Positions 27,687 to 64,000 of a stretch of 64,000 nt of DNA are shown in pieces (position 1 is the first letter of the stretch; each line of letters opens with the position of its first letter). Location: NCBI GenBank assembly GCA_963753595.1, contig CAVWCX010000001.1, positions 96,001 through 160,000 of the forward strand. Direction: 5' to 3'. The notes under the pieces are model-generated. The model saw nothing but the letters and a program-made list of their open reading frames with translations, ran no database searches and was not told where the DNA came from. This stretch comes from Candidatus Methanoperedenaceae archaeon. GTDB lineage: Archaea > Halobacteriota > Methanosarcinia > Methanosarcinales > Methanoperedenaceae. The position numbers were made by a program, and so were the translations under genes.

Positions 27687-27699
27687 ATGGATAGGATAG
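27687..27699 (+). promoter_or_regulatory. ATGGATAGGATAG motif, copy 1
   Basis: Exact 13-mer also present at 27814, 53778 and 59532. Confidence 0.6.
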
Positions 27700-27745
27700 G
27701 GAACTTGCAGCCTGATACTATTTATCATGATTAATTGAAATTAAT

Positions 27746-27765
27746 GAATCGTAAAGTATATATGC
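27746..27765 (+). promoter_or_regulatory. putative BRE/TATA promoter of pentaheme subunit A
   Basis: GAATCGTAAAGTATATATGC. Confidence 0.55.
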
Positions 27766-27813
27766 TGTAAACTCATATCCTAATTATACCCAAATTGACA
27801 CCAAATTGGGAAA

Positions 27814-27826
27814 ATGGATAGGATAG
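27814..27826 (+). promoter_or_regulatory. ATGGATAGGATAG motif, copy 2 (predicted 5' UTR)
   Basis: Exact 13-mer between the TATA-like box and the start codon. Confidence 0.6.
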
Positions 27827-27921
27827 GAGCGATAGCAAAACGAAGATTGTGTTTGCTTGATTCTTATTCTTAACAAACCAAATTGGATTTAGGGTTAATA
27901 AAGATAGGATGTGAAAAATAT

Positions 27922-29181
27922 ATGAACGCAAAATTTACTTTAGCCATAATTGCGTTAGTTGGAATAGGCGTGTTCGCCCTGCCATCAACCATGTCGTTGT
28001 TCGCAGGCCAGCACTCGTTCTATAACATTGACGCAACAGGCAACCAGGTCCCGTGTGTGAAATGCCACGGTGATGTGAAAGCAGAATTGGGATCAAATGC
28101 AAATACAGTTGCAGCCAATGGACCCCTGACAGCAGGACCACACGCAGCATTTAAGTGCGAGTACTGCCACAGAATAGAACAGGGTGCTTCCAGCGGTGAC
28201 AATGCAGTTGCAATAGTTCCATACGAAAATGCGACAGGAGCAATTATAAGGGCAATTGCAATACCAGTATCAGACATGGAAGCAGGTAATTTCCCAACGG
28301 GAATTACGGGTGCTATGCTATTTACTAGCAGCAGTACAACTCTTAATGGTACAAAATTACAATTCGGTAAGGGTGCTATCAGTGCAGCTACAGCCGATGC
28401 AACATTAGAAGTAGCTCCCAGACAAGATTGGACAATAATGGCATCATATGATGCAATTACTGGCTTACCCAAGGATACAAACGCATCCACAATGTATGGT
28501 GGAATTGACCCATCGAAGATAAACGTCACTATAAATACTGCTAGACCATACGTTAGTCTTGGTTTCTTGAATGCAGGTTCACAGGCAGTCAACCCGGGCA
28601 GCAAATATCATGCAGCATCACTTGTATCATGCATGGAATGCCACGGTGGCGAAGAACCACTTGGTCACTATACCAGAGTTACAAGCGAAACGAGATGTTC
28701 TGACTGTCACTACGGTTACAACCCAGTTCCAGGCGCTAGATGGACTCAGCTCGCAGCAGGCGGCTTCGGACTTACAACATCCGCAAATGATACTGGCACA
28801 TCAGAAGCCCATAACGCATGGGTAAAAACCGATGACGGTATAAACAGATTCGGCGGACAACAGGGCAAGGAAGCAAATAACGGTGCATGTATTGGATGCC
28901 ATACCCACGTAGCAGTAGACATTGCATTCAATAAGGGCTACAAGCTCTCATTCACTGCAACCGAGGCAGCAACCGGTTCTTATACTGTTTCCGATGCAAA
29001 AGTTGAGGGAACAGTTCACGTTGACATATACGGCAACGGTTCTGGCGAAACCTTCGGTGTGGGCGACAAGTCCTATACCTGGACACCAGAGACAACCCTG
29101 TATCTCAATGGTAATGGCACAGTTATCAGCGGTCTCAATGGAGACTCCAGCGACAGCGCAACAGCTCTTACAACCCCGTAA
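27922..29181 (+). CDS. pentaheme cytochrome c, putative major nanowire subunit A
   Basis: PSTMSLFAGQHSFY; CVKCH, CEYCH, CMECH, CSDCH, CIGCH; own promoter and terminator. ATG 27922 chosen by identity with the paralog. Confidence 0.9.
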   Translation: MNAKFTLAIIALVGIGVFALPSTMSLFAGQHSFYNIDATGNQVPCVKCHGDVKAELGSNANTVAANGPLTAGPHAAFKCEYCHRIEQGASSGDNAVAIVPYENATGAIIRAIAIPVSDMEAGNFPTGITGAMLFTSSSTTLNGTKLQFGKGAISAATADATLEVAPRQDWTIMASYDAITGLPKDTNASTMYGGIDPSKINVTINTARPYVSLGFLNAGSQAVNPGSKYHAASLVSCMECHGGEEPLGHYTRVTSETRCSDCHYGYNPVPGARWTQLAAGGFGLTTSANDTGTSEAHNAWVKTDDGINRFGGQQGKEANNGACIGCHTHVAVDIAFNKGYKLSFTATEAATGSYTVSDAKVEGTVHVDIYGNGSGETFGVGDKSYTWTPETTLYLNGNGTVISGLNGDSSDSATALTTP

Positions 29182-29182
29182 T

Positions 29183-29428: not shown

Positions 29429-30082
29429 TTACACTCCACCTTTATATGCCCCTTCAATTGTTTTCATGTTTTCAATCATTCTTCTTCCGGCCTGGGTCAG
29501 CATGTATACCTTCTCGCTGTCTTGCTCAATAACATTATATGATTTCAGGATACGAAGATGAAAGCTGAGTTTTGTGGCATCATCTATCTTAAGCATGTTT
29601 TTAATCTCTGTGAACTTGAGTTTACCTGCTTTATTGAGAAGTTTCAGGGTGTTTTTTCTTATTGGATTTGAAATCGCCTTAATTAAATCAGATTCAAGGA
29701 GTTGTGGATATTTATTGATCTCTGCCGTTGCTAGAATTATCCTTATCTTTGTCTGTACCTCGTCTATCTTAAATGGTTTCGTTATATAATCCGACGCTCC
29801 TGCTTTTATTGCATCCACAGCATTTTCAATTGTCCCGAATGCTGTAATTATTATTACGTTTGCCCCGGGTTTGATATGTTTTATCTCCATTAAGACATCC
29901 ATTCCCCCCATGACTGGCATAATCAGATCAGTCAAAATAACATCAAATTCTTTTTTCCTGATTTTTTCAAGCCCAACCTGGCCATTCTCGGCAGACTCTA
30001 CATTATATCCCTCATCTGTTAAAATTTCTACTAATCCATCCCGCATTTTCTGTTCGTCTTCTATAACTAGTATATTTTTCAT
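29429..30082 (-). CDS. response regulator: NtrC-like REC + ArsR-like winged HTH
   Basis: ILVIEDE, TDLIMP, ITAFGTIENAVDAIKAGASDYITKPF; then KAISNPIR...LSFHLRILK...YMLTQAG. Confidence 0.9.
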   Translation of the reverse strand: MKNILVIEDEQKMRDGLVEILTDEGYNVESAENGQVGLEKIRKKEFDVILTDLIMPVMGGMDVLMEIKHIKPGANVIIITAFGTIENAVDAIKAGASDYITKPFKIDEVQTKIRIILATAEINKYPQLLESDLIKAISNPIRKNTLKLLNKAGKLKFTEIKNMLKIDDATKLSFHLRILKSYNVIEQDSEKVYMLTQAGRRMIENMKTIEGAYKGGV

Positions 30083-30086
30083 ATTG

Positions 30087-31790
30087 TTAAACCGGTAGTT
30101 TTATTTTGAATGTAGTGCCATGATTTACTTCACTTTTCACTTCAATTGATCCATTGTGGCGTTTGATAATTCCATAGCAGATAGAGAGACCAAGACCAGT
30201 CCCATTGCTCCGCTCCTTTGTTGTGAAGAATGGATCAAATATTTTATCAAGTTTTTCCTCTGGTATGCCGCAGCCGTTATCTGATATGCTGATTTCTACA
30301 TGTTTCGGGTTTGCTGTGGTTTTAATGATTATTTCTCCATTTTCTGTAATTGATTGAATTGAATTTGTGAGCAGATTCATTATAACCTGTTGAATCCTGA
30401 CGCTGTCACCAACGATAAGAGGAAGAGGCTCAAAAAAGGTATTGACTTTTATATCTTTTACTTGAGGATTCATGATTCCAAGTACTTTACTTATCTCATT
30501 ATTTATATCAATATTACATAGTTTCAGATCTGAATTCCTTGCAAAATCAAGCAGGTCTTTCACAATATTTGCGGCCCTGTTTGCTTCATCATCGATTATT
30601 ATGAGTTTATTCTTTATTTTATCATCATCTGTCTTTTTTATCAGCATCTGGGCATAAAGGGAGATATTCCCAAGTGGATTATTTAGCTCATGGGCCACAC
30701 CTGAAGCAAGCGTGCCTATTGTTGCGAGTTTGTCGGATTGCAGAAATTGTTTTTGAAGGTTCTCCATTTCCTTCTGCATGCTTATATCCCTGATAATTCC
30801 AACCATGGCTATTGGCTCACCTTTGTAATCTTTAACCATATATACATTTAACCATATCGGAAATTTTCGATTATCTTTGTGCTTGGCCGTGATTTCCCCG
30901 GTCCAATTCCTTTTCTCTTTTATACAAGGGATTATCACTTTGCTGCCAAACTCCTGATCTGCAATAATTTCCTTGAAATGCCTTCCCTTGAACTCATCGG
31001 GAGAAACTCCGAACATATTCTCCATTGCTTTGTTGGAGTAGATGATAAGGCCGTTCATATCAGTGATTTGAACCCCGTCCGGAGCTTCTTCCACCGCAGT
31101 CGAGAGCTTCCGAAGCTCGCTTATATTTTTATTTAAGTCGTATGACATCTGGTTAAAAGCTTTTGAAAGAGTATGGATATCGTCATCAGTCGAATCGAGT
31201 TCTATTTTATATTCGAAATTCCCCCGGCCTATTTCTTCGGCCCCTTTTACAAGTGCCCGTATCGGTGCTGCAAAATAATTTCCGGCCAGATAAGCCATTA
31301 AAATTCCAAATAAGCCTACTATCAAAATGTTAAATATTATAATATCTATTTGTTTATTTATCGTTTCATTTATGGAGGTTCTATCCATTCCAATATGGGC
31401 AAAACCTTCCCTGCCGCCATAAATTGGAGCTTGGAAATCCATAATATTTCCTGTGCCGGAGCTGCTGTTACAATCGATATCAGTAACCAGGAAATCGTTT
31501 GAGTATATATGTCCTATTACATTATGAGAGGCATCGGTTAAATATACACATTTTACTTCACTATCTGCATTTATAATGTTCTTAGCAAGCTGGCTGAAGT
31601 TGGCATTACCCTCATTCGGTAAGCTCCCGCCAGCTTCTTCTGCAAGATGTTTTACAAGAAAATTTCCCCTCCCATTAAGTTCTTCGGATAATGTAGTTTC
31701 CATGTTAGACTGCATAAAGAAGATGGTCAGAATATCAATGAACACTATAATAGCAACTGTCCAGAGGATAAATTTCTTAGTTATTTCCAT
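30087..31790 (-). CDS. membrane sensor histidine kinase (HAMP-PAS-HisKA-HATPase, NtrB-like)
   Basis: Two TM segments; [10 protein letters not shown]; [10 protein letters not shown]; DNGCGI; FDPFFTTK; GTGLGL. Confidence 0.93.
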
Positions 31791-31966
31791 ACTTATGATT
31801 TTATCTGTTTATCTTTAAGAGTCATACAATTCATTACATATTATTTTTTCTAATTAAAAGTATCGGTTAGTTTATCCATAATATCTGATATAAAATTTAA
31901 TACAATTATTGATATAAACATAAAAGGGAACAAGGGAACAAAAAGTGAAAAAAAATTTTAAAGATA

Positions 31967-31998
31967 GGATGTGAGTTATCGTTACGGATGTCACATCC
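31967..31998. promoter_or_regulatory. inverted repeat GGATGTGA-N16-TCACATCC in the divergent intergenic region
   Basis: Perfect 8-bp arms between the kinase gene and subunit B. Confidence 0.5.
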
Positions 31999-32213
31999 AA
32001 GAACTCTATAAGAATCTAACAGTATAAAAACATTTTTTGAAGTAAAGTTATAATTAAACCCGATTTATTGAAAATAAGTTCAATACTCAAATTTAATTGA
32101 ATATTTTTTCAAATAAAGCCCTAATAATTGAAATATTGTCCAAAAAACCATTATATAATCTGAAAATCATTTTAGAAATACCCATTATGGGCTTGGATAG
32201 GTTCGTTTGAAGA

Positions 32214-32248
32214 ATTTCGTATAGGACGAATATTTCGTATAGGACGAA
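32214..32248 (+). repeat. tandem 17-nt direct repeat, each copy a mini-hairpin with ATAGG loop
   Basis: ATTTCGTATAGGACGAA x2 (period 18); stem TTCGT/ACGAA. Confidence 0.75.
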
Positions 32249-32282
32249 CTAGTCTTAAAAAAAATAGGAAGTGAATCAAAAT

Positions 32283-33572
32283 ATGAACGCAAAATTTACT
32301 TTAGCAATAATTGCGTTAGTTGGAATAGGCGTTTTCGCCCTGCCATCAACCATGTCGTTGTTCGCAGGCCAGCACTCGTTCTATAACATTGACGCAACAG
32401 GCAACCAGGTCCCGTGTCAGAAATGTCACGGTGATGTAAAAGCAGAATTAGGATCAAACGCAAATACAAATCCATTAGTTGGACCAATTACAGCAGGACC
32501 GCATGCAGCATTCAAGTGCGAGTACTGCCACAGGATAGAGCAGGGTTCAGCAAGCGGTGATAATGCATTCGGGCGCCTTTTTTACTATAATGGGCCTGAT
32601 GGGACTGGTGTAAGAGTTAGATCTGCAATATTAACAGTCGCTGATTTTGAAGCAGGTAATTATCCTATAGTTATCAACGGCACAGACATCTTTGATAGCA
32701 AAGGTTTAACTCTTGCAGGTGTCACCTTGCAGCATGGAGCCGGCAATATTAGTGCAGTAGATGCTGCGGCTTCAACACCTGAAAATGCAACCCTTTATAT
32801 CGGGCCGAAGTCGAGTTTCAGATTAATGAAAACCTATAGTGAGACCACTGGTTTACCATTGGACGGAAATTCATTGACAGCCCAAGGCGGATTAAATCTA
32901 ATAAACGCTACTGTTTCTCCGTCTGGCACTGTCGGTTTATTCGGTGCTGGTTCCAAATCAGTCAACCCTGGCAGCAATTACCATGCGGCATCACTTGTTT
33001 CCTGTATGGAATGCCATGGTGGAGAAGAACCCATGTCACACTGGAGACGTGTCGATGCTGGACCAACACCATGTAATAACTGTCACTATGGTGGTGGTGA
33101 TGCTCCCTTGGCATTCGCAAACAAGATGACTACATTGGAGGCAGGAGGCTTCAACCTTACTGGCAAAGCAGATGACACTGGCGAAAATGAAGCCCATAAT
33201 GCATGGGTGAAGGCCGATGATGGATTAAACAGATTCGGTGGACCGAATGGTAAAGCAAATAACGGTGCATGTATTGGATGTCATACACACGTGGCAGTGG
33301 ACATTTCATTCAATAAGGGCTACAAGCTCGCATTCACTGCAACCGAGAGCGCAACCGGTACTTATAGCGTTTCCGATACAAAAGTTGAGGGAACAGTCCA
33401 CGTTGACATATACGGTAACGGCTCTGGCGCGACCTTCGGTGTAGGCGACATGTCCTATACCTGGACACCAACACAAACTATGTATATTAGTGATGGTACC
33501 AGCAATACAACGGTTGTTCCAGCTCTAACTGGAGAATCAAGCGATTCCTACGCTGCATTGACAACCCCGTAA
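32283..33572 (+). CDS. pentaheme cytochrome c, putative major nanowire subunit B
   Basis: N- and C-termini near-identical to 27922; CQKCH, CEYCH, CMECH, CNNCH, CIGCH. Confidence 0.9.
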   Translation: MNAKFTLAIIALVGIGVFALPSTMSLFAGQHSFYNIDATGNQVPCQKCHGDVKAELGSNANTNPLVGPITAGPHAAFKCEYCHRIEQGSASGDNAFGRLFYYNGPDGTGVRVRSAILTVADFEAGNYPIVINGTDIFDSKGLTLAGVTLQHGAGNISAVDAAASTPENATLYIGPKSSFRLMKTYSETTGLPLDGNSLTAQGGLNLINATVSPSGTVGLFGAGSKSVNPGSNYHAASLVSCMECHGGEEPMSHWRRVDAGPTPCNNCHYGGGDAPLAFANKMTTLEAGGFNLTGKADDTGENEAHNAWVKADDGLNRFGGPNGKANNGACIGCHTHVAVDISFNKGYKLAFTATESATGTYSVSDTKVEGTVHVDIYGNGSGATFGVGDMSYTWTPTQTMYISDGTSNTTVVPALTGESSDSYAALTTP

Positions 33573-33574
33573 AT

Positions 33575-34985: not shown

Positions 34986-34986
34986 T

Positions 34987-37520: not shown

Positions 37521-37525
37521 TTTAA

Positions 37526-50656: not shown

Positions 50657-50811
50657 AATGAGGAATTCAGTTATCATTGAGCAATTTATTTATAATATGA
50701 GAAGCAAATATTTATATACTAATGATTCAGCCTTAAAAGGATCTCTTGTGCAAAATGGCAGTAAACCGAACACCTCAATAGCATTTAAAAAACCATATGA
50801 GGTGATAAAAA

Positions 50812-51693: not shown

Positions 51694-51720
51694 ACACAAA
51701 AATTGATACGAACATATAAA

Positions 51721-52369: not shown

Positions 52370-52460
52370 CATGACAATGATTCTAATCCACGGGTCGCAA
52401 TACGGGGGGGAAGTTAATTCCGTTAATCTTATAATTACACAACCCTCAGAGAAGGCTTAT

Positions 52461-53672
52461 ATGAAATTAAGATTTATGAAACTATTTATCTTTTTGTTCG
52501 CAGTAAGTTCAATAATTGGAATGGCATCCGCAAAATGGAATGAACCATATTTCATTTTACCGGATTCTGACCGTCCTTCGATGATACAGGATATGGATGG
52601 GATATACTGGATAGCTTTTAATTCATATACAAACCCTCAAAATATCTGGATAATGAATTCTAATGATAGCATTAATTGGACTAATTTCTATCAGGTTACA
52701 GCCTCAAATCTTACAGATTATGAACCGAATTTGATCCAAGATAATAAAGGCAGGTTCTGGATACTTTTTTCATCTCTTATAGAGATCAGGGGAACATTGA
52801 GTTTCAATTATGATCTGAAACTTACTCATTCTGATAATGGTATTAACTGGTCAGAACCTGTTAATATCACAAATAGCCCATTAATTGAATCATACCCTTA
52901 TATAATGCAGGATAGAACAGGGCGATATTTTATTACATATTCGACTTATAGCAATGAATCAATAAATAATCTGGATATTTATTTGAAATATTCTGATGAT
53001 GGGTTAAAATGGTCACAACCAATAAGGATAACAGATTCCTCTGAAAGTGATATTTTTCCAATCATGATCCAGGATAACAGCGGAAAATACTGGATGCTTT
53101 TTTCCATGAATACTCATGAAAGACATAAGCCTTTATTAAATAAATATGATTTATTTTTAATATATTCAGGAGACGGGATACGCTGGTCAGATGCAGCTGA
53201 GATAACAAATCTGAGCTACAATATCAATTATCCTTATTTCATGCAGGATAAAGAAGGAGTATTCTGGATCCCCCACATGACCGGCATCACAGGGTCTGAA
53301 GAACTCGGGATCATGGGATCATTGAACGGGACTGAATGGACTGACTCTGTTGTATTGTCAAATTATAGTACTGAAGGATATTTCAAGACCGATTATAAGT
53401 CCATGATCCAGGACCGGAATGGAAGCTATATATATGCTTTTACTTCTGCAAAAATCGGGAGGGGAATATGGCTGATGAATGGAACGCCTGACCTGGATTT
53501 CTCAAAGCCCAGAAAGGTGGAATTCAATAATAGCAGGATAACTGCAGAAAACGATACGAAAAACATCATAAGAACCATCCCTGAAAGGAAAAACAATGAG
53601 CTTGGAATAGAATTAGGATCTTTGACCATATTGATTTTCTTTGTAATTGTTATTCTGAAAAGATCATCATGA
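52461..53672 (+). CDS. Asp-box/BNR (sialidase-like fold) beta-propeller surface protein with C-terminal TM
   Basis: Repeats of P.[LIM].QD..G.[YF]W...S.DG..WS; signal peptide from ATG 52461; C-terminal TM + KRSS. Confidence 0.8.
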   Translation: MKLRFMKLFIFLFAVSSIIGMASAKWNEPYFILPDSDRPSMIQDMDGIYWIAFNSYTNPQNIWIMNSNDSINWTNFYQVTASNLTDYEPNLIQDNKGRFWILFSSLIEIRGTLSFNYDLKLTHSDNGINWSEPVNITNSPLIESYPYIMQDRTGRYFITYSTYSNESINNLDIYLKYSDDGLKWSQPIRITDSSESDIFPIMIQDNSGKYWMLFSMNTHERHKPLLNKYDLFLIYSGDGIRWSDAAEITNLSYNINYPYFMQDKEGVFWIPHMTGITGSEELGIMGSLNGTEWTDSVVLSNYSTEGYFKTDYKSMIQDRNGSYIYAFTSAKIGRGIWLMNGTPDLDFSKPRKVEFNNSRITAENDTKNIIRTIPERKNNELGIELGSLTILIFFVIVILKRSS

Positions 53673-53777
53673 TGCACGTTACATGATGATAATGCTACTA
53701 ATCATTTTAATTTTCACGACATATAATAATAGAAAAATTTATAAGGGATAAGGTCTAATTATTTTTTAATATTTCAT

Positions 53778-53790
53778 ATGGATAGGATAG
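53778..53790 (+). promoter_or_regulatory. ATGGATAGGATAG motif, copy 3
   Basis: ~35 nt downstream of AAAAATTTATAA (TATA-like) and upstream of the 43-heme gene. Confidence 0.6.
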
Positions 53791-53864
53791 AAGATTTCAT
53801 TTCTCACTGGATAGAAGTTTTCTTAAAAACATAATGATAAAAATGAAACCAGGGAAAGAATTAT

Positions 53865-56800
53865 ATGGATATGGAAAAAGGGAAGAATAACAAAAGTTTG
53901 AACAGCATTTTTAATATAATTTTAATTTTAATCGTAATTTCAATATATTTTATACCGGCAGCTATGGCGGCAAATCCGCAGATAAAACTTACAACGAACA
54001 GGTATATAATTCTTGACGATCCAAATAAAAATTATTTAAGTGTAACAGCAAATGCAGAAACTGGTTTTGGTTTACCGGGAAGCTGGAGTACGGATGCGTG
54101 GAAAGGTGAATCCACCACAATCCGAGGTGTCGCTCTTGTCCTCAATGCCGATGGCACTCCCGCCAGCGGAGTGACAGTAACCTTCTCTGCCCTTGACTGG
54201 AATGATGCAGCACCAAGAGATCCTCTTAAGAGTGATACGAACAGCAAGACAAATGTAACAAATGACTACGGTCTTGCAACAGTTCCTTTTGATCTTAATA
54301 ATGAGCAGCAATACGGGAGATGGAAAATAACAGCTACAGCAACAGTAGCAGGGACTCCAGTAAGTTCAAGCTCCAATTTCGTTTATAACTGGTGGGGATG
54401 CCAGAACTGCCACGGAAGTCCTTATTCTGGCCAAGGGAGCTCTAAGAGTTATACATCGAGAATAGGAACTGGCAATAGATACGACCCATATTCACCATAT
54501 ATTACAGGAAGAGATTTCCATGCCACGATGTATCGCAGCGACCATGTTGCAGGTTCTTCCGGGGGGTTGAATGAGGGAGAATGCTGGGCATGTCACAATT
54601 CTTATGATAAAGACTTGAACCTGGGACAGGCAAAAGATGTTGATGGTTCTTCGTATTCAGGAAGAGATGCACCTTCAACGTATGGTGTACATACAAATTT
54701 AGCATGTGCTGAGTGTCATAGCATAATAGGAACAAGTTCAGCCGGAATTGACCAGACCGTGAAATCATGCGATGCAACAGGATGTCACATAGGCGCAACA
54801 GATTTTAATTCTCATATAGGGTCTGAAACAGTTACAGCAACCTCTCCCAATAAATATGTAAATTATTCTGGTCTTGATGCCGCACTGGGGTTAAGGTCAT
54901 TCCTCAGTTCTCCATCTTATATTCCAACACCAGCAACCTTCAATTCAAATCCCCTGACAGGAGCAAGAGCCCATACATCAGCCACAGTCCAGAACATCCC
55001 CTGTACGGTATGCCATGGGCCAATGCACAATGTTACAAAACCCAATATCAACACGGTACCAAAGAACACAATTACTGAAGATACACAGTGTACCACATGT
55101 CACCAATCCCTGAAACACTCAAATAATAATCCTGTTTATTGTACGGCATGCCATTCTCAGGATGCTCATAACATTACAGTACTCAGCAAAACAGCAACTT
55201 CCCAGCCTTCTTATGAGTTCCTGGGTTCTACGAATGCGATGACAAATTTGACAACAGATTGCGAGCAGTGCCATGCATCAGGGCCTGAAGCCACATTCTT
55301 TGGCTCATTGACCACGGCTGACAGTGCAGCGTATTCTACAAATTTCGCGCCAGCCACACCAGTGCATAACAGGCATAACGGCACTGTTGCATGTACAGTT
55401 TGTCATGACAATACTAATTTCCACGACATCAAGTTCTTGCAGCCAAATGGCGCATATTCGACTTCCAAGACGACAGCAGTGAAATGCATTGACTGCCATG
55501 ATGGAACAAACTCTGCAGTACGCAGCGTTGTGCAGACCAGGTTCGGTTCATTACCGCCAACAGTAAATGCCAATATGAACCACAGTTCAGATAACGGCGG
55601 TCAGAAATGGGGCTCCTACTGGACAACTCCAAATGAAGCATGTCTCTACTGCCATGGTGAAACGCAGCATAATACATCTGCCATAGGTGCGGCAGGAAGT
55701 GCACTTGGTACTGATAAAGTCGGTGACCCGATTGGTTCAGGCACGGTATGCTCAAGCTGCCATAATCAGGATGACAGCAACTATAATGTCGTGAATTCAC
55801 TTTCCCCTAAACCACCTGCGAATAAAGCAGGATCGAACTATCCATCCAGCGGAGCAGTGGATCACTCAAGCTTTGGTATAACTGATAATGATTGCAAGAA
55901 CTGCCATGGCAGTAACCTTGCTGGCGGTGAGAACATGGTTGGATTCACTCATAATGTAGCCCCGTCTGGTGGAAGTGGCTCATGCGATTCCTGCCACGCA
56001 CAACCGCCCAATGGCGCTTCAAGATATAATACACAAGGCGCTCATACACTACACTCAGCAGCAGGATATGGCAATGTAGCAATCACCGGCTGCAATTACT
56101 GTCATTCGACAGAAGGCGCAAATGAAGCCGGCCATCCCGGAACATTCAATGATGCCACTGTAGTCACTAATTCCTCAGCAACAATCGCGTTATATACTCC
56201 GAACAACCTGAACGGCAAAGACGATACATGCAGTGGTGTCTCCTGCCATACAACCGGTCTTAGCAATGGAGCCAAAGTCGGCACAGCCACCTGGGACTCC
56301 ACAACCGGAGCCTGCAGCAACTGCCACTCCACAGTCCCAAGCGGTCTTCCGCCTACAGGCAACCATACCAAACACTACACCACAGAGAACTACCAGTGCG
56401 CCACCTGTCACGGCACTAATGCCGATGCAGGGACACAGACCGGTCACAAGACCAATGGAGCAATCGACATATCCTTCACAGGTACACTTGCAACCGGCGG
56501 CAGTATCACATCAGGCACATGCGACGTCTATTGTCATTCACCAAACCCCAACGATGTCAAACCCAAACCTGCCTGGAACACATCAACCGTGGTCTGTGGG
56601 GATTGTCACAGCCTTCCGCCCACCACAACACGAAATGGTGTTTCACATACGACCAATACTAACTGCGACATCTGCCATGGAACAGGTGCTTCAACAGGCA
56701 CTCAACTCGGTCACATAGATCGTTCGATCACCACATTGGGAGGCGGCAGTACATGTACAATATGTCATGCCCAGCCACCCAATGATGCAATTGTAACAGA

Positions 56801-59414
56801 TCAGCGCAACAATACCGACGGAGCCCATATCCTGCATAAGAACAAAGGCTATGGTGCAGTTGCCGAAACAAGCTGCAACTATTGTCATAACAATGGTGGA
56901 AGCAACGAAGGTGGAGCCCATCCAAACGGTTTGTACAATGTGGTTACTAATTCCTCAGCAACAATCGCGTTATATACTCCGAACAACCTGAACGGCAAAG
57001 ACGATACATGCGCGGGTGTCTCCTGTCATACAACCGGTCTTAGCAATGGAGCCAAAGTCGGCACATCCACCTGGGACTCCACAACCGGAGCCTGCAGCAA
57101 CTGCCACTCTACAGTCCCAAGCGGTCTTCCGCCTACAGGCAACCATACCAAACACTACACCACAGAAAACTACCAGTGCGCCACCTGTCACGGCACTAAT
57201 GCCGATGCAGGGACACAGACCGGTCACAAGACCAATGGAGCAATCGACATATCCTTCACAGGTACACTTGCAACCGGCGGCAGTATCACATCAGGCACAT
57301 GCGACGTCTATTGTCATTCACCAAACCCCAACGATGTCAAACCCAAACCTGCCTGGAGCACATCAACCGTGGTCTGTGGGGATTGTCACAGCCTTCCGCC
57401 CACCACAACACGAAATGGTGTTTCACATACGACCAATACTAACTGCGACATCTGCCATGGAACAGGTGCTTCAACAGGCACTCAACTCGGTCACATAGAT
57501 CGTTCGATCACCACATTGGGAGGCGGCAGTACATGTACAATATGTCATGCCCAGCCACCCAATGATGCAATTGTAACAGATCAGCGCAACAATACCGACG
57601 GAGCCCATATCCTGCATAAGAACAAAGGCTATGGTGCAGTTGCCGAAACAAGCTGCAACTATTGTCATAACAATGGTGGAAGCAACGAAGGTGGAGCCCA
57701 TCCAAACGGTTTGTACAATGTGGTTACTAATTCCTCAGCAACAATCGCGTTATATACTCCGAACAACCTGAACGGCAAAGACGATACATGCGCGGGTGTC
57801 TCCTGTCATACAACCGGTCTTAGCAATGGAGCCAAAGTCGGCACATCCACCTGGGACTCCACAACCGGAGCCTGCAGCAACTGCCACTCTACAGTCCCAA
57901 GCGGTCTTCCGCCTACAGGCAACCATACCAAACACTACACCACAGAAAACTACCAGTGCGCCACCTGTCACGGCACTAATGCCGATGCAGGGACACAGAC
58001 CGGTCACAAGACCAATGGAGCAATCGACATATCCTTCACAGGTACACTTGCAACCGGCGGCAGTATCACATCAGGCACATGCGACGTCTATTGTCATTCA
58101 CCAAACCCCAACGATGTCAAACCCAAACCTGCCTGGAACACATCAACCGTGGTCTGTGGGGATTGTCACAGCCTTCCGCCCACCACAACACGAAATGGTG
58201 CAACACCACATGCAGGTGTTACGGATTGTGATGTCTGTCACGGTACGGGTGCTAATACAGGAACCCAGAACGGCCATATTAACAGAATTATAGACGTATC
58301 AGGCGGTGGCTGCACAGGATGTCACAGCAATGTTGGTACCGCAAGTCTTGGCCTTCACTCCAATTTAAACGGAACGTCCGCAGTCGATGACGGAGATTGC
58401 CAGACCTGTCATTTTGCTTCATTCCCAATGGTAACCGGTGCGGCAAATAGTTCCAATACGCATTATTGTCAGGATTGTCATACCAGTGCAGGAACAGGAT
58501 CTCCTAAACCGGGTAGTTTAGTATCGGTAAGCCATGGAAAAATCGACTGTAAATGGTGCCATGCGGCAGGCGATCAACCAGCCTCTAAGTATCATTCGAA
58601 TAATCTTGGATCACAGCAAGGACCAAAAGGTACAGCAACAGGAGCGAATTGTGCTACCTGCCACGGTGCTAATCTTCAAGATGTATTTAGAGCTCCGGGA
58701 ATAACACATTTAGGAGATATTACTACTTGTGGTGAATGCCATAGCGGTGCTAACAATCACTTAGTATCAGCGTTAAGCGATTTTTCCTCTCCAACACTTT
58801 CAGGAATACCACTGACAACATCGGTAACGGTCGGAGCACCTGCTCATATCCAGGCTACAGTATCAGACAATATTGTGATGATAGCAGCTGCCCAGTATCA
58901 GGTAACAAATACCTCAGGAACGGTCATTCCATGGACAAATATGACATCCTTGGATGGATTTAATTCAGCAACTGAAACTGTTATTGCATCAATACCTACA
59001 TCAAATCTAATTGGTCCTTATACAGTTAGCATTAAAGGCATGTCTTCAGCATACAAGACTGATCCTTCAAAGCCATATTATCCACTCAATGGTATGTGGA
59101 GCAGCGTTAGTACTGTTCAACTTATTGTTAATCAACCAAAAGGATATGTTAACGGAACAGTTAAAAATGGGACTAATACAATAGCAGGGGCGATAATAAC
59201 CACCAATACAGGTGTTTCCGCGATAACTGACTCGAATGGTAATTATTCCTTGAATCTTGCGTATGGCCCTTATCAATTAATTGCCACCAAGGAGCCGGAA
59301 TATTATTTCAACAACAGTGTAAGTGTAGAGGTTTCAGAAATTCCGGTAGATCAGAATATCATCCTGAATAAGAAACCCACTGGAACTATAAGCGGTACGG
59401 TTAAGAACAAATAA
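53865..59414 (+). CDS. giant extracellular multiheme cytochrome c (~43 sites: 36 CxxCH, 3 Cx3CH, 4 Cx4CH)
   Basis: Signal peptide; N-terminal Ig-like domain; Geobacter-type CxxxxCH...CxxCH units; C-terminal Ig and carboxypeptidase-regulatory-like domains. Manual count. Confidence 0.93.
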   Translation: MDMEKGKNNKSLNSIFNIILILIVISIYFIPAAMAANPQIKLTTNRYIILDDPNKNYLSVTANAETGFGLPGSWSTDAWKGESTTIRGVALVLNADGTPASGVTVTFSALDWNDAAPRDPLKSDTNSKTNVTNDYGLATVPFDLNNEQQYGRWKITATATVAGTPVSSSSNFVYNWWGCQNCHGSPYSGQGSSKSYTSRIGTGNRYDPYSPYITGRDFHATMYRSDHVAGSSGGLNEGECWACHNSYDKDLNLGQAKDVDGSSYSGRDAPSTYGVHTNLACAECHSIIGTSSAGIDQTVKSCDATGCHIGATDFNSHIGSETVTATSPNKYVNYSGLDAALGLRSFLSSPSYIPTPATFNSNPLTGARAHTSATVQNIPCTVCHGPMHNVTKPNINTVPKNTITEDTQCTTCHQSLKHSNNNPVYCTACHSQDAHNITVLSKTATSQPSYEFLGSTNAMTNLTTDCEQCHASGPEATFFGSLTTADSAAYSTNFAPATPVHNRHNGTVACTVCHDNTNFHDIKFLQPNGAYSTSKTTAVKCIDCHDGTNSAVRSVVQTRFGSLPPTVNANMNHSSDNGGQKWGSYWTTPNEACLYCHGETQHNTSAIGAAGSALGTDKVGDPIGSGTVCSSCHNQDDSNYNVVNSLSPKPPANKAGSNYPSSGAVDHSSFGITDNDCKNCHGSNLAGGENMVGFTHNVAPSGGSGSCDSCHAQPPNGASRYNTQGAHTLHSAAGYGNVAITGCNYCHSTEGANEAGHPGTFNDATVVTNSSATIALYTPNNLNGKDDTCSGVSCHTTGLSNGAKVGTATWDSTTGACSNCHSTVPSGLPPTGNHTKHYTTENYQCATCHGTNADAGTQTGHKTNGAIDISFTGTLATGGSITSGTCDVYCHSPNPNDVKPKPAWNTSTVVCGDCHSLPPTTTRNGVSHTTNTNCDICHGTGASTGTQLGHIDRSITTLGGGSTCTICHAQPPNDAIVTDQRNNTDGAHILHKNKGYGAVAETSCNYCHNNGGSNEGGAHPNGLYNVVTNSSATIALYTPNNLNGKDDTCAGVSCHTTGLSNGAKVGTSTWDSTTGACSNCHSTVPSGLPPTGNHTKHYTTENYQCATCHGTNADAGTQTGHKTNGAIDISFTGTLATGGSITSGTCDVYCHSPNPNDVKPKPAWSTSTVVCGDCHSLPPTTTRNGVSHTTNTNCDICHGTGASTGTQLGHIDRSITTLGGGSTCTICHAQPPNDAIVTDQRNNTDGAHILHKNKGYGAVAETSCNYCHNNGGSNEGGAHPNGLYNVVTNSSATIALYTPNNLNGKDDTCAGVSCHTTGLSNGAKVGTSTWDSTTGACSNCHSTVPSGLPPTGNHTKHYTTENYQCATCHGTNADAGTQTGHKTNGAIDISFTGTLATGGSITSGTCDVYCHSPNPNDVKPKPAWNTSTVVCGDCHSLPPTTTRNGATPHAGVTDCDVCHGTGANTGTQNGHINRIIDVSGGGCTGCHSNVGTASLGLHSNLNGTSAVDDGDCQTCHFASFPMVTGAANSSNTHYCQDCHTSAGTGSPKPGSLVSVSHGKIDCKWCHAAGDQPASKYHSNNLGSQQGPKGTATGANCATCHGANLQDVFRAPGITHLGDITTCGECHSGANNHLVSALSDFSSPTLSGIPLTTSVTVGAPAHIQATVSDNIVMIAAAQYQVTNTSGTVIPWTNMTSLDGFNSATETVIASIPTSNLIGPYTVSIKGMSSAYKTDPSKPYYPLNGMWSSVSTVQLIVNQPKGYVNGTVKNGTNTIAGAIITTNTGVSAITDSNGNYSLNLAYGPYQLIATKEPEYYFNNSVSVEVSEIPVDQNIILNKKPTGTISGTVKNK
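56166..58200 (+). repeat. ~2.6 copies of a nearly perfect 780-nt (260-aa, 8-heme) tandem repeat
   Basis: ACTAATTCCTCAGCAACAATCGCG at 56166, 56946 and 57726; only a handful of substitutions between copies. Confidence 0.95.
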
Positions 59415-59531
59415 TATTGAATGATAGGAATATATTGGAGCGAAATATTCTTTCGCTCTTTTTTTTTAATGTATTTTTATAAAAAAAATAATGAGATAGT
59501 TTTATCTATTAAAACGTTCATTTTATTTTTG

Positions 59532-62297
59532 ATGGATAGGATAGTGAAGATTTTGAAGCTTAACATATTTTCTGGAATTAAGGATAAAATGGGATTGTTG
59601 CTGATATTGATTGTATTTATTTCTTTTATTCCGATTGTTTTTGGTGCATCTCCGAACGATGCCTGTTTTAGCGGTATATGCCATAGTTCTTCAGGTCCTA
59701 CGATCGACCGCGCCCTGTACGACTCCAATCCACATAAAATAATCAAATGTATCGAATGCCATAATAGCTCAACAAATAACTTAGACCCTAGTCATGGTGT
59801 GTTCATAAGACAATTGAACGGCAGCAAGATCACAGGGCCCTTGACAACAAAATATTATTCCCAAAATTTCTCTCTATGTTATTACTGTCATGCAGAAAAG
59901 AATGTCGTAGGATTTTTACCAGGCTGGATACCCTCAGCTAACCACAGAAATACTACCCCGATTATAGTCTCAAACATAGGTACTAATTTTATCAATATTG
60001 ATCCATTAGGTTATCATAATGGCAGCGAAGGCGGAATTGATTCTGATATACCAACAAATATTCATTGGAATCATCTGGATGCCTTCGGGAGCGAAAATTA
60101 TGGTATTGGAGGCAAATTTGATACTGACATGGATGGAGTAAAAGACTCTTTTCAATCCTGCCCTGCCTGCCATAATGTCCATGGGACAAACTATCCTAAG
60201 ATGACAAGAAATGACTTAGCTATTGCTTATTCTTCTGATGGAAATGGAACATTTGGATATATCGGAAGCGAACAATACAACTTTAAAGGTGGCGATGTCT
60301 TTTGCGGAGGTGGTTGCCACACCTCTGGTATGGGTTATAAATATTATAGAACTGAGATAAAAATATTTCAAGACTGTATCTCATGCCATGTGGATGGTTC
60401 ACCCGGAGATGTAAACAGAACTGCTTTCAGCCTGGGTGAGCATCTTAATATTAATACCACTGGTGGTATTAACTCAGTTAATAACACAGACTGCTGGTCA
60501 TGTCACTTTAACAGGGATATGAATAGAAGCAACATCCGGCAATGTAATTACTGCCATACTGGAAGCGCCAAACCCGAAGCTCCAAGTGCGCCAATTATAA
60601 GAACACATGTCTCGGGAGTAAAGATCACTAATTATTCATGCGCGGATTGCCACAGCAAAGTGATCGTTGATCCTGGAACTGGAATTCCTAATGTAACATC
60701 CCATTATCTAAAGAGACCCAATGTATTAAGTGAAAAGTATTGCGATTATTGCCATGGACCAAATCCAAGCTCTCCATTCAATGCAACAAACAAGACTATT
60801 CCAGCGTTGAACCATGACAATTCGGACTGGAACGGAAATGCCACATGCCGAACATGCCATTCAAATTCCAGTGTTACGGCCGACCCTCTGGCTAATGATT
60901 ATACATCATTCCATGATCTTACTACTGAATTAGGCGATGTATATAATGGAACGGCAAGGGCAGACTGTTTCATATGCCATGTCCAGAACTCCCCACAGTT
61001 TGTCGTGGCTCCATATCCCTCGCATGATATTATTGGCTATAACGCAGAGGATTGCCGTAACTGTCATACATCAGGAACGGGCACGGAACCGCAAAAACTA
61101 CACAGCGTAACTGCATCTGCGACTGGCGGGTGCATACCCTGCCATTCAAATAATGCAACCAGGTATTATGCAAACACAAGCCTCTTTGGAAGACATGCAA
61201 ATGTAAATGCAACAGGTGGTCCGAATAACGTAACAGATGATGATTGTAAGACCTGCCACTTTGGTACTGCAGATGGGACGATGAAGATGAAGCTGGGTGC
61301 AGCGAACTCAAGTAACACGTATTTCTGTGAAGCATGCCATACATCAGCAGGTTCAGGACCAATCCATCCAATAGACAACAACCTTATTAAAGATGGTTTG
61401 CAGCATGGTTCAACAAATTGCCAGTGGTGTCATATTGCAGGTGCTCTTCTTCCAAGGCCATTAGATACTACTTTAAGATATCATCCCAGCGGGCCTCGAG
61501 GAACTGCTGCCGGAAAGAACTGCCTGACATGCCATGGTTCCAATCTCCCGGATTTACCTTTCCATGCACCTGGAATAGTACATTCTTCTGATTTAGATGG
61601 TTGTGGTTATTGTCATTCACAAACAGATAATCATGCTGTTAGCCCATTGAACTCTAACACTCCACCATCGATTTCAGGTTTGTCCGTTACTACAGTAGTT
61701 ACTGCAGGCAATGTAGTGCAAGTTCAAACTACGGTAGCGGATGATATGACTCAGATAGCAGCAGCCCAGTATCAGGTCAAGAAAGGTACAACCACAGTTA
61801 TTGATTGGACAAATATGACTCCAAAGGATGGAAGATTTGATTCGTCAAGTGAAATAGTGAACACCAGTATTGATACATCAGCCCTCCTGGGTACCTACAC
61901 AGTCAACATCAAGGGCATGGCTTCAGCATACAAGACCATTTTAACATTACCTTATTATCCATTGAACGGTCAATGGAGCGGTATCATCAGCGCACAATTT
62001 AGTGTTAACCAACCCACCGGGTATAATAATGGAACTGTGAGTGGAAGATTGGATAATGGTTTAGCAGGTGCGGTAGTATCTACCAATACAAGCGTATCCA
62101 CTACCACTAACGAAACCGGATTTTATTCTTTAAGTTTGACAAATGGCACATATCGGTTGACAGCAAGCAAGGATCCGGAATATTATTCAAATAGCAGTGT
62201 AATAGTGACTGTGATAGCACGCACTAATATAACTACAAATATTATTCTTGATTTGAAACCAACAGGCAATATAACTGGTAAAGTTACGAACAAGTAA
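59532..62297 (+). CDS. extracellular multiheme cytochrome c (~19 sites: 17 CxxCH, 1 Cx3CH, 1 Cx4CH)
   Basis: Signal peptide ...IPIVFGA; the C-terminal ~390 aa are paralogous to the end of 53865. Start uncertain (59421, 59532 or 59589); the ATG at 59532 is within copy 4 of ATGGATAGGATAG. Confidence 0.9.
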   Translation: MDRIVKILKLNIFSGIKDKMGLLLILIVFISFIPIVFGASPNDACFSGICHSSSGPTIDRALYDSNPHKIIKCIECHNSSTNNLDPSHGVFIRQLNGSKITGPLTTKYYSQNFSLCYYCHAEKNVVGFLPGWIPSANHRNTTPIIVSNIGTNFINIDPLGYHNGSEGGIDSDIPTNIHWNHLDAFGSENYGIGGKFDTDMDGVKDSFQSCPACHNVHGTNYPKMTRNDLAIAYSSDGNGTFGYIGSEQYNFKGGDVFCGGGCHTSGMGYKYYRTEIKIFQDCISCHVDGSPGDVNRTAFSLGEHLNINTTGGINSVNNTDCWSCHFNRDMNRSNIRQCNYCHTGSAKPEAPSAPIIRTHVSGVKITNYSCADCHSKVIVDPGTGIPNVTSHYLKRPNVLSEKYCDYCHGPNPSSPFNATNKTIPALNHDNSDWNGNATCRTCHSNSSVTADPLANDYTSFHDLTTELGDVYNGTARADCFICHVQNSPQFVVAPYPSHDIIGYNAEDCRNCHTSGTGTEPQKLHSVTASATGGCIPCHSNNATRYYANTSLFGRHANVNATGGPNNVTDDDCKTCHFGTADGTMKMKLGAANSSNTYFCEACHTSAGSGPIHPIDNNLIKDGLQHGSTNCQWCHIAGALLPRPLDTTLRYHPSGPRGTAAGKNCLTCHGSNLPDLPFHAPGIVHSSDLDGCGYCHSQTDNHAVSPLNSNTPPSISGLSVTTVVTAGNVVQVQTTVADDMTQIAAAQYQVKKGTTTVIDWTNMTPKDGRFDSSSEIVNTSIDTSALLGTYTVNIKGMASAYKTILTLPYYPLNGQWSGIISAQFSVNQPTGYNNGTVSGRLDNGLAGAVVSTNTSVSTTTNETGFYSLSLTNGTYRLTASKDPEYYSNSSVIVTVIARTNITTNIILDLKPTGNITGKVTNK

Positions 62298-62579
62298 GAT
62301 GGTTGATCAAAAGAACATTGTAGATTGAAATAATCCGACATGATGTCACAATGCTATTTTGTGGCTTATTTTTGCTTATAGTAATTATAAAAGGTACAGA
62401 TGGTCCTGGATAGGCTTTTATAATGACTATTTTTTTGTCTCTCAGACTCAGAACTAAAACGATACAAATATATGCAAAGACATTTTAATTAATTAAAAAC
62501 ATTATAAAACGGGATAGGGTTATTTGTATCAAAGATACATTTAAAAATAATTTAATATAAAATCGATAGGAGAAGTAAT

Positions 62580-64000
62580 ATGAGTTGGATAGGAGATAGT
62601 CAATCGCATAGCAAAGCAAATTATATGATCACCGCATTTTTGATTTTGACATTGTTATTATCGTTTTCATTTATAACCATAAATCCAATCCAGGCAAAAT
62701 CGAATATTAAAAATCATAATAATATTAATGGAAATATAACGGATACGGAATGCATAATCTGTCATCCAACACAAGGAACACTATTCCAATCAGAATTGAA
62801 TCAATTGGATAAGCCTTTAATCGAAAATGCATCCAATATTAATTCATTGCTTCAAGTCGGGGAAAATTATACTGCGATCCTTACTTCCGGACAAACACCT
62901 TACCAGCTCGGTCCATTTTTCCGCAGTGGAGCTAATGGTTGGAGCTGGCTGGATACTGGTGCCTGGGGAACAGATAGGCAGAAAAATCTTATCCTGCTTT
63001 CAATATTTGATAATTCTACCGGAAGCATAAAACCTGTCCAAGGATTGACTTCATGGTTATCCTGGCCGCAGGCCAGTTTTAGAAATCATAGCGGGACATA
63101 TAGCTACAAAGCAGATAATGGTCCATCTCCTATAACTATACAGGGAAATTATCCGGATGCCAGTGAATTCTGGATGATTAAAGAGATCAACTTAAGCGGA
63201 CTTAGCACTGCAACTCTTAATTTCTGGACATGGTATTCGATGGAAACAGATTGGGATTATGGATATGTTGCGATATCTTCTGATGGAAATATCTGGATAA
63301 ATCTCCCGGGAAACAATACTACAAATACAAATCCTAATGGCAATAATCTGGGAAATGGAATAACCGGTAACAGTGGTGGAATATGGGTATATGAAACGAT
63401 GGACTTGACATCATATGTCGGAAAAAAGATGTTGATCGGATTCAGATTTGTGTCAGATGCAGCTGTAAATGAAGAGGGAATGTATATAGATGATATTACT
63501 GCAACCGGAGGATTTAGTGATTATGCAGAAACTCTTATTGAAATAAAAACCCTGAGTGTCAATGTTACGTATCCTCGCCTGGCAATACTGAATCCAACAG
63601 ATCCGATGACGAGCGCAAGCACGTTACAGTATAATCCATACGTTCAAAAAGTGGAATTGCATGAAGATATAAGTCATCCTGGCACATACGCTGGATATTT
63701 CCAATACGAACCATTTGGAGGCCAATATTCAGGAAAATATACCGTTTATTTTGATACTGCAATAAACGGCGAACGGGTTATCGGCAATACAACATTCGAT
63801 ACTACTATTTTTGGTTGCCAGGATTGCCACAATAAGAATTATAATGGTGCTGAAACGAGTTTTGTTCATGCGGATGGCGGAGGAATGCAGTCATGTGAAT
63901 ATGTATGTCACAGCGGATCAAGAGGTTTATATGACAATGCATTTATGGGGCCGCCTCTTCCGGCAAATCCAATACATGTGCATGAAATGAAATTCGGACA
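62580..64000 (+). CDS. multiheme cytochrome c with immune-inhibitor-A/MAM-like beta-sandwich domain (3' partial; missing from the ORF track)
   Basis: Hand-translated open frame from ATG 62580 to the window end: signal peptide, CIICH, FWTWYSMETDWDYGYVAISSDG...NPNGNNLGNGITGNSGG...DLTSYVGK..IGFRFVSD...GMYIDDI, CQDCH, CEYVCH. Confidence 0.85.
   Translation, partial: MSWIGDSQSHSKANYMITAFLILTLLLSFSFITINPIQAKSNIKNHNNINGNITDTECIICHPTQGTLFQSELNQLDKPLIENASNINSLLQVGENYTAILTSGQTPYQLGPFFRSGANGWSWLDTGAWGTDRQKNLILLSIFDNSTGSIKPVQGLTSWLSWPQASFRNHSGTYSYKADNGPSPITIQGNYPDASEFWMIKEINLSGLSTATLNFWTWYSMETDWDYGYVAISSDGNIWINLPGNNTTNTNPNGNNLGNGITGNSGGIWVYETMDLTSYVGKKMLIGFRFVSDAAVNEEGMYIDDITATGGFSDYAETLIEIKTLSVNVTYPRLAILNPTDPMTSASTLQYNPYVQKVELHEDISHPGTYAGYFQYEPFGGQYSGKYTVYFDTAINGERVIGNTTFDTTIFGCQDCHNKNYNGAETSFVHADGGGMQSCEYVCHSGSRGLYDNAFMGPPLPANPIHVHEMKFG

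Follow-up and report, generated by a model that had tools for sequence, protein, structure and literature searches.

RsaE/RoxS and LhrC of the Firmicutes are sibling trans-acting small RNAs in which a pyrimidine-rich loop seed meets purine-rich ribosome-binding targets. Among archaea, sRNA162 and sRNA41 of Methanosarcina mazei act in trans by masking ribosome-binding sites, each from a single-copy gene and on its own targets. Here we describe a purine-rich motif (the 13-mer ATGGATAGGATAG) found before multiheme cytochrome (MHC) genes in a 64,000-nt stretch of a Candidatus Methanoperedenaceae archaeon (assembly GCA_963753595.1, contig CAVWCX010000001.1, here C1, positions 96001-160000; this whole stretch is called the window), together with a set of intergenic hairpins that carry the same motif in their loops. 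In Methanoperedens (anaerobic methanotrophic archaea of clade ANME-2d), methane oxidation is coupled to nitrate, metal oxides or electrodes, and the many MHCs are thought to carry electrons out of the cell; to our knowledge, how the cell selects which cytochromes to make has not been established. We tentatively propose, at somewhat short of an even chance, that the hairpins give rise to sibling small RNAs that pair with the 5' ends of MHC mRNAs. If true, this would add a multi-copy family to the few trans-acting RNAs known in archaea, and a 5'-end signal with matching candidate small-RNA genes provides a concrete and cheap hypothesis for coordinated post-transcriptional control of cytochromes. 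Even if the small-RNA proposal fails, the motif is of practical use as a marker for cytochrome transcript starts and for a new structured element of the genus.

As a kind, the hairpin and motif system resembles the known seed-sharing small-RNA families. Like RsaE/RoxS and LhrC, it comprises several paralogous hairpin genes per genome with one invariant C/U-rich loop sequence, and the complementary purine-rich sequence lies at or beside the translation start of related envelope or redox mRNAs. It differs from them in its archaeal host with BRE (transcription factor B recognition element)/TATA promoters, in a far longer invariant seed (12-14 nt) and in the lack of any sequence or Rfam relation (no matches at E <= 1), and expression and pairing of the hairpin RNAs are predicted. 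With sRNA162 and sRNA41 it shares a Methanosarcinales-related host and the proposed pairing at the mRNA 5' regions of several targets, but it is a multi-copy family with one loop, and its targets would be extracellular electron-transfer cytochromes. Neither the motif nor the hairpins were described in Rfam or in a limited full-text literature search on Methanoperedens. When searched against Rfam 15 at E <= 1, 20 hairpin loci returned only two tRNAs and the whole window returned no matches.

The exact 13-mer was found in the window at 27687, 27814, 53778 and 59532, always on the + strand, where a first-pass annotation of the same DNA had placed it. With at most one mismatch allowed, six matches were counted against 0.05 expected, a number reached in none of 100 shuffles. 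The related form AAGATAGGATGTGA occurs at 27901 and 31961 (0.02 expected in the window), and the shorter variants listed in that annotation were likewise recovered, with GGATAGG at 32195, 62408, 62512 and 62587 and GATAGG at 62565. In all, GGATAGG is present 14 times in the window (11 on the + and 3 on the - strand) against 6.35 +/- 2.35 expected, which again no shuffle of 100 reached. An even spread along the genome was not seen: in the archaeon's own genome (2.89 Mb, 37 contigs, 92% complete) there are five forward and no reverse copies of the 13-mer, all of them on C1, within a single cytochrome cluster of 41 kb and on its coding strand. The fifth copy, C1:164720 (window coordinate 68720), lies 4.7 kb past the window end and 16 nt 5' of a 930-aa open reading frame (ORF) whose product begins with a hydrophobic segment at the N-terminus and lacks CxxCH, which indicates that the motif is not confined to heme proteins. 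The short forms are abundant genome-wide (974 copies of GATAGG and 267 of GGATAGG), so a single short variant is weak evidence; GGATAGG is mildly enriched between genes (60/267 = 22%, compared with 14% intergenic DNA). The motif itself is a direct repeat with a 5-bp period rather than a palindrome; GGA occurs in it three times and UAG two to five times, recurring every 5 nt. A role as an rRNA guide is unlikely, as both the 12-mer and its 10-nt core are absent from C31, the rRNA contig.

We then assessed how the motif is distributed relative to the 28 genes of the own genome with at least four CxxCH, taken as the MHC set. On the sense strand and between -200 and +120 of the start codon, GGATAGG was found at 5/28 MHC genes compared to 64/2849 other genes (odds ratio 9.5, p=4e-4), and GGATAG near the start at 10/28 compared to 245/2849. 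The antisense form CCTATCC occurred near the start of only one of the 28, and neither the complement nor four control 7-mers of similar make-up were enriched at MHC starts in this genome. The enrichment and strand bias that the first-pass annotation had proposed to look for are therefore present. Its further claim of a regulon-wide element did not hold: 23 of the 28 MHC genes have no GGATAGG nearby, all five positive genes lie in or adjoining the window, and some bearers are heme-less secreted proteins or other genes. Within the window, the + strand from 27.9 to 64 kb carries a run of genes that match cytochrome c7/c3 and MtrC-type profiles, and the ORFs directly after the motif sites contain 5, 5, 36, 17 and 5 CxxCH. 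All listed sites are upstream of or at the start of these genes on the coding strand, as had been claimed, with the exception of the copy at 31961, which sits in the divergent gap before the second cytochrome gene.

The motif is a feature of the genus. Among 41 searched genomes, the 13-mer was present in 20, namely the own genome, 18 of 24 other Methanoperedens and one of the 16 that represent other families of the order. Of the resulting 53 exact copies, each inspected in its context, 27 are inside hairpins and 14 belong to genes with 5-36 CxxCH, either preceding the gene or sitting at its start; these genes come in at least seven different sizes and heme counts. Another 8 copies are placed likewise at genes of other kinds, and 4 fall within ORFs or have an unclear context. 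Among the genes of other kinds are those for small membrane proteins, a sugar dehydrogenase, a 930-aa secreted protein, an IS200-like transposase and, in two species, a 77-aa protein rich in Cys. Five further genomes contained 29 exact 12-mers, of which 24 contexts were inspected and resolved into 23 elements (19 hairpins and 4 gene leaders, two of the latter preceding genes with 8 and 5 CxxCH). Only exact or near-exact copies were used, since matching with two mismatches was dominated by chance coding-sense matches (56/92). Reversed-pattern controls were weak or void because the 12-nt core reads the same backwards and the control matches the same sites, in one case with identical counts; comparisons of 17 with 16 and of 92 with 71 are thus uninformative, and the genus-wide control overstates the background. 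Copy number was seen to differ among species (L072, L073, L101, L122, L012, L005), with two tandem copies in some leaders and in some hairpin loops and up to five GGATAGG-like units in some leaders.

The motif occupies the extreme 5' part of the predicted messages. It falls within roughly the first 1-30 nt of predicted MHC mRNAs, in the leader, in the stretch next to the Shine-Dalgarno sequence (SD) or in codons 1-5. Promoters were scored with a weight matrix from 18 tRNA promoters of the own genome (consensus CAAAGGTTTAAATCCC), by which the distance from the promoter to the mature tRNA 5' end is mostly 20-29 nt. The gap from the best promoter site to the motif was 21-30 nt in five independent genes and 49-50 nt in the family of the 432-aa gene at 27922, within a full range of 4-54 nt. 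The ATG within the motif has a good SD before it in several genes, where the ORF starts with MDRI(G/V) and continues into a signal-peptide-like segment. Small leaderless ORFs beginning MDRIG were also considered and were rejected, as conservation ends with the fifth codon and a stop is reached after 8-19 codons; the first-pass annotation had likewise noted unconserved codons after the M-D-R-I opening.

RNA evidence was available from assembled contigs of four runs (X1-X4) of one study; the contigs belong to a relative with 88-89% identity, and the runs contain only about 5% of the words. Contig mapping covered 43001-63000, where uncovered parts are uninformative and the intergenic region 59092-59792 is not resolved. 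Three of the four runs yielded a contig of about 1.7 kb that opens with GGAAATTCT and continues into the motif, before the gene for the 1849-aa cytochrome. GGAAATTCT is the spacer between the relative's two motif copies, and the contig therefore starts at the last bases of the first copy. Depth was about 100 on this motif-led contig compared to about 10 on the upstream genes. The motif region is thus transcribed in the relative and stands at the end of the assembled message, an end that in contigs does not amount to proof of a transcript start. The first-pass annotation had suggested a cis element acting in RNA, and this is consistent with sites that are strand-specific, conserved in the genus and located in a transcribed leader; it does not account for the 27 of 53 genus copies that lie in hairpins beside unrelated genes.

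These hairpins, about eight in the own genome and none in the window, are roughly 60-95 nt long, occur in unrelated intergenic regions and present the motif in a large loop on a stem of 7-12 bp. In the own genome they are placed at C2:77-130, C2:114018-114083, C3:92803-92877, C27:46841-46910, C36:134644-134732, C37:24393-24479, C18:60911-60989 and near C7:85690. The arms differ by locus and are always complementary (GAGGAGCC, GAGGAACC, GAGGTTGG(GG), GTAGAGGA, GGGTATCTG, ATAGTGGGCA and GGATAAAGGGGG). In a 39-row alignment, compensatory changes on both sides were observed in 8/8 stem pairs, and 97.2% of cells were paired compared to 74.7% in shuffles and 50-71% with the partner slid; this alignment was model-fitted, leans to structure and includes eight reverse-strand rows. 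Changes are seen in the linkers, whereas stem, A-run and motif persist, and this is so at orthologous loci as well. Elements are retained at orthologous sites, for example upstream of mutS in three genomes. The flanking genes of 34 elements were convergent in 10 cases, divergent in 7, both on the - strand in 8 and both on the + strand in 7, with one flank missing in 2. This random orientation indicates that the hairpins are autonomous units and not leaders. A covariance model from seven sequences (R1), which proved too narrow, recovered four known hairpins of the own genome and a new degenerate one at C2:114018-114083 before reaching noise. A first MAFFT alignment of 12 hairpins was discarded, as its arms were misaligned.

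It is fairly probable, judging from several sequence features, that the hairpins are read from the strand opposite the motif, so that they would display CCUAUCCUAUCCAU, the exact complement of the leader motif. Among 331 Watson-Crick stem pairs, mismatches of the A.C type numbered 13 compared to 2 of the G.T type, and A.C on the motif strand corresponds to G.U on the opposite strand; a manual count left about 9 compared to 2 independent events once orthologs and doubtful stem extensions were removed. An AT-rich box lies at +24 to +28 beyond the 3' arm in 34 elements of all families. By the tRNA-promoter matrix, the antisense orientation outscored the sense in 25/34 elements, and the 90th percentile of the background was exceeded in 15/34 antisense, 6/34 sense and 1/33 far-side positions. 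The gap from promoter to hairpin base was 19-25 nt in 28/34 elements, as at tRNA genes. Runs of A directly before or just inside the 5' arm are U-runs on the opposite strand, and U-runs are archaeal transcription stop signals. Read from the flanks, a U-run follows the hairpin on the antisense RNA in 19/34 elements, and it lies inside the hairpin in the GAGG families. In a second set from the five other genomes, the U-run, outside or just inside, was antisense in 15/19 compared to sense in 1/19. Predicted folds of the antisense strand had lower z-scores in six of seven own elements, with CCUAUCCUAUCC left unpaired, and the loop is unpaired in 6/7 of these folds. The search for a complementary RNA suggested by the first-pass annotation has in this way yielded candidate loci that would carry CCUAUCCUAUCC when read from the opposite strand; their complementarity to the leaders holds only if the antisense strand is the RNA.

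On this basis, (A)UGGAUAGGAUAGG may be an RNA-level signal of the genus Methanoperedens, placed at or near the 5' end of many MHC mRNAs and of a few other secreted-protein mRNAs, where it would form a short 5' untranslated region (UTR), the stretch beside the ribosome-binding site or the first five codons. The approximately eight hairpin loci per genome would be small-RNA genes read opposite to the motif, each driven by a separate BRE/TATA promoter that lies about 20-25 nt ahead of the hairpin base and each ending in a U-run. Each RNA would expose CCUAUCCUAUCCAU unpaired in its loop, and the siblings could pair over 14-15 nt with the 5' ends or start regions of cytochrome mRNAs, setting the translation or stability of these mRNAs as a group. 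Hairpin transcription, its strand, the pairing and the direction of any effect are parts of the proposal and not observations.

A number of results weigh against this proposal. The mapped RNA region 43001-63000 contains none of the hairpin loci, so their expression and strand are predictions. The second set of elements was weak on the promoter matrix, with the antisense higher in 13/19 (mean 3.4 compared to 2.6), and the hairpin families followed by a conserved box (ATTATACCCAAAT) score low in both orientations. Whole-element folding energies have no strand bias, the sense strand being more stable in 19 elements and the antisense in 13. For the GAGGnnCC/GAGGTTGG family, the proposed RNA has its U-run within the hairpin, ahead of the 3' arm; an archaeal polymerase would be expected to terminate at that point, in conflict with the covarying arms. 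The hairpin instances include orthologs and are not independent, the motif is predicted to be internally paired in the leader of the 432-aa gene, and invariance of the motif within the genus means that co-variation between loop and target offers no test.

Alternatively, an RNA-binding protein could bind the GGA/UAG repeats at the 5' ends of cytochrome mRNAs, with hairpins transcribed in the sense direction serving as decoys in the manner of CsrA and CsrB. The two settings carry an identical 14-mer without variation, the motif has its GGA and UAG repeats and in several genes covers part of the ribosome-binding region, TATA-like boxes are also present at -37 to -28 on the sense side of the GAGG-family hairpins, and an internal A-run would be harmless in a sense RNA. 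Csr/Rsm systems (CsrA/RsmA with CsrB/RsmZ) likewise have GGA motifs at mRNA ribosome-binding regions and in intergenic hairpin loops, but here each locus has one hairpin rather than many, and mismatch types, U-runs and promoter scores favour the opposite strand, which would display the complement. A candidate protein was not found: the own genome, 92% complete, gave no match to CsrA (PF02599) in a search that was positive in 3/14 control genomes, and none to TRAP (PF02081) in a search that was positive in Bacillus subtilis. TRAP (MtrB) sites consist of (G/U)AG repeats 2-3 nt apart, usually 9-11 of them. The motif is like these in its UAG triplets at a 5-nt period, in places over a ribosome-binding site (L058, L061 and L062 read G-UAG-GAA-UAG-GA-UAG-AA-UAG-AGGUGA), and unlike them in having only 2-5 repeats and no TRAP homolog. 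We consider the protein-site explanation unlikely. Still less probable is a purely cis-acting 5'-UTR element, such as a stability signal at the 5' end or a weak ribosome-binding site repeated in tandem (AGGA every 5 nt), with the hairpin copies in a separate and unrelated use. The motif is the whole 5' UTR of several genes, 1-15 nt before the ATG, and like a Shine-Dalgarno sequence it is purine-rich, often directly 5' of the start codon and often continued into GGAG(G), with an AGGA that can pair with UCCU at the 16S 3' end. However, the 16S 3' end is GGAUCACCUCCU, and AGGA is the only part of the motif that fits it (4 nt), so that the first-pass annotation was right to set the motif apart from the usual Shine-Dalgarno. 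The motif stands anywhere from 0 to more than 200 nt away from the start codon, it also occurs in codons 1-5 and in hairpin loops, and a cis element leaves unexplained why the same 14-mer recurs in 27/53 copies within covarying hairpins.

The remaining two explanations act at the level of DNA, and both appear very improbable. A transcription factor could bind GGATAGGATAGG at promoters, and copies near TATA boxes and predicted transcript starts, some hairpins between divergent genes and a two-component system within the cluster would fit such an operator. The neighbouring response regulator with a REC domain and a helix-turn-helix (HTH) domain, which had earlier been put forward as a possible binding partner, is one example; nothing was found that ties it to the motif. 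An operator would also have to tolerate a promoter-to-motif gap of 4-54 nt and a direct repeat of 5-bp period without dyad symmetry; it does not explain the strand bias at MHC genes (5 sense compared to 1 antisense) or the 10 hairpins between convergent genes, and covarying flanking stems have no role in duplex DNA binding. Little more can be said for a dispersed, formerly mobile repeat resembling a miniature inverted-repeat transposable element, possibly promoter-bearing, whose insertions gave the cytochrome leader copies. A unit of about 150 nt recurs at unrelated loci in random orientation relative to genes, and the copy at 27687 lies in a segment of about 87 nt that is missing from three relatives. 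In contrast, the arms differ (GAGGAGCC, GAGGTTGG, GTAGAGGA, GGGTATCTG, ATAGTGGGCA and others) and so are not shared terminal inverted repeats of one transposase, the copy number is low (about 8 per genome), no transposase is associated, and orthologous sites are kept across species with stem and loop conserved and linkers free. There are already signs of purifying selection on the loop and stem. Pairing of sibling small RNAs with MHC messages remains the reading that we prefer.

The leaders of the individual cytochrome genes (Table 1) place the motif in different ways. Upstream of the 432-aa gene, the TATA-like box at 27757 has a matrix score of 7.6 and a gap of 49 nt to the motif. An invariant block, TAATTATACCCAAATT..CCAAATT.GGA..ATGGATAGGATAGGAG, was found about 25 nt past the TATA box in five species, and further homologs of the gene have the same leader arrangement. 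The relatives of this cytochrome are all from Candidatus Methanoperedens, the closest named record having 93% identity. It was noted that the predicted leader (27786-27935) folds much more stably than shuffles (z -3.7). In this predicted fold, the partner of GGAUAGGA is a pyrimidine stretch, UUCUUAUUC, located about 40 nt farther downstream and kept in several orthologs. Transcripts from a second promoter farther upstream (TTTTATTA at 27662-27669) probably begin at the more distant copy, 27687, which has ATTAAAA(AA)CGTTC upstream in common with the promoter at 59532. The segment 27654-27740 that contains it is the one absent from the alignable upstream regions of three close relatives (L051, L052, L067), and a fourth, L008, has a related upstream motif copy. 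The spacing around 27687 is similar to that of the hairpin elements, but its 8-bp AT stem is no better than shuffles (z +0.37 / -0.27) and the adjacent TATA is oriented in the sense direction toward the cytochrome gene, and a hairpin-type element was rejected here.

Both the gene at 27922 and that at 32283 start with MNAKFTLAIIALVGIG and are therefore taken as paralogs. The AAGATAGGATGTGA copy at 31961 is probably a remnant of a duplicated ribosome-binding region, from the duplication that made the paralogous cytochrome genes. In the leader of the 433-aa gene, the order of small hairpin and GGATAGG is kept in three homologs (L059, L063, L068). The same leader contains a tandem direct repeat, TTTCGTATAGGACGAA, in two copies at 32214-32250.

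For the 1849-aa gene, the predicted TATA is TTTATAAG at 53738-53745. Two relatives with 88-89% identity (L072, L073) have two tandem motif copies before this gene, and more distant orthologs have GGATAGGA directly 5' of the ATG. The 958-aa gene that follows has a predicted promoter element, TTTTATCT, at 59500. Its homologs in seven other genomes have a (G/A)CTTTAT-type TATA, with (T)GGATAGG 24-37 nt downstream of it; the ATG comes 1-15 nt later in six of the seven, and the seventh, L098, has GGATAGATAGG. With the ATG so close, the motif makes up most of a short 5' UTR in these homologs. Between the two genes, right after the stop codon of the first, a GC-containing hairpin followed by T9 at 59437-59468 is terminator-like, and the next cytochrome gene thus probably has a separate start. 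It was noted that single RNA contigs of the relative cover both genes in 2/4 runs. Farther downstream, each of the short variants at 62408-62593 is individually near chance.

Table 1. Motif copies, promoter elements and cytochrome genes in the window, with the adjoining two-component genes (positions count from the first nucleotide of the window).
Feature	Position	Strand	Remarks
Motif copy 1 (13-mer)	27687..27699	+	236 nt 5' of the start of the 432-aa cytochrome gene
TATA-like box GTAAAG-TATATATG of the 432-aa gene	27757..27764	+	position kept in 5 species
Box ATTATACCCAAAT, then small leader hairpin CCCAAATT..AAATTGGG	27783..27810	+	block invariant in 5 species
Motif copy 2 (ATGGATAGGATAGG), leader of the 432-aa gene	27814..27827	+	about +25 to +28 from the predicted transcript start
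AAGATAGGATGTGA as ribosome-binding region (SD-like AGGATGTGA)	27901..27914	+	8 nt before ATG 27922
MHC gene, 5 CxxCH	27922..29181	+	432 aa as ORF called; 419 aa from ATG 27922
Response regulator (REC + DUF7347 HTH) and PAS/HAMP histidine kinase	29429..31790	-	context only
Second AAGATAGGATGTGA copy	31961..31974	+	part of hairpin GGATGTGA..TCACATCC (31967-31998)
GGATAGG in the leader of the 433-aa gene	32195..32201	+	directly after small hairpin CCCAUUAUGGG
Paralogous MHC gene (433 aa), 5 CxxCH	32283..33572	+	
Motif copy 3	53778..53790	+	about 87 nt before the 1849-aa ORF, about 11 nt past the predicted transcript start
MHC gene, 1849 aa, 36 CxxCH	53865..59414	+	
Motif copy 4	59532..59544	+	ATG in frame with the 958-aa cytochrome ORF; about 5-7 nt past the predicted transcript start
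MHC gene, 17 CxxCH (958-aa ORF)	59532..62297	+	start ATG 59532 (MDRIV..) or ATG 59589
GGATAGG at 62408, 62512 and 62587, with SD-like GATAGGAG at 62565	62408..62593	+	around the start (62580) of a 5-CxxCH gene with InhA-like domain

A second conserved box was encountered beside part of the elements. This box, ATTATACCCAAAT, is usually followed by CCAAAT 4-5 nt later and was found in the window at 27783-27795 and elsewhere in the own genome at C2:170, C36:134603(-) and C37:24352(-). Four of five genome copies of TATACCCAAAT are near the motif, 50-83 nt beyond it and always on the far side of the TATA-like box from the hairpin. The box follows 15 hairpin loci (for example L036, L046 and L025), and in the orthologs of the 432-aa gene it lies 32 nt upstream of the motif with no hairpin. 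Hairpin, TATA and box together form the composite unit of about 150 nt that recurs at unrelated loci, and the box may be the rightward transcript start or a factor site of a two-way promoter. We entertain as a possible, rather doubtful extension a many-to-many RNA network, in which about eight sibling RNAs with a frozen 14-nt loop would jointly gate the translation of extracellular electron-transfer cytochromes and other surface proteins whose mRNAs start with the complement of that loop, some of the RNA genes sharing the two-way module (TATA and ATTATACCCAAAT box) with protein genes. If true, such a module would couple the transcription of regulator and target.

The window also contains a giant ORF of 3643 aa at 39725-50656, with matches to CarboxypepD_reg and Big_9. 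Its GC content is 0.42-0.48, compared to 0.34-0.40 in the surroundings, with a strongly negative GC skew. Repeated 124-aa antisense ORFs at 44627, 45170, 48428 and 48971 within it suggest long internal tandem repeats.

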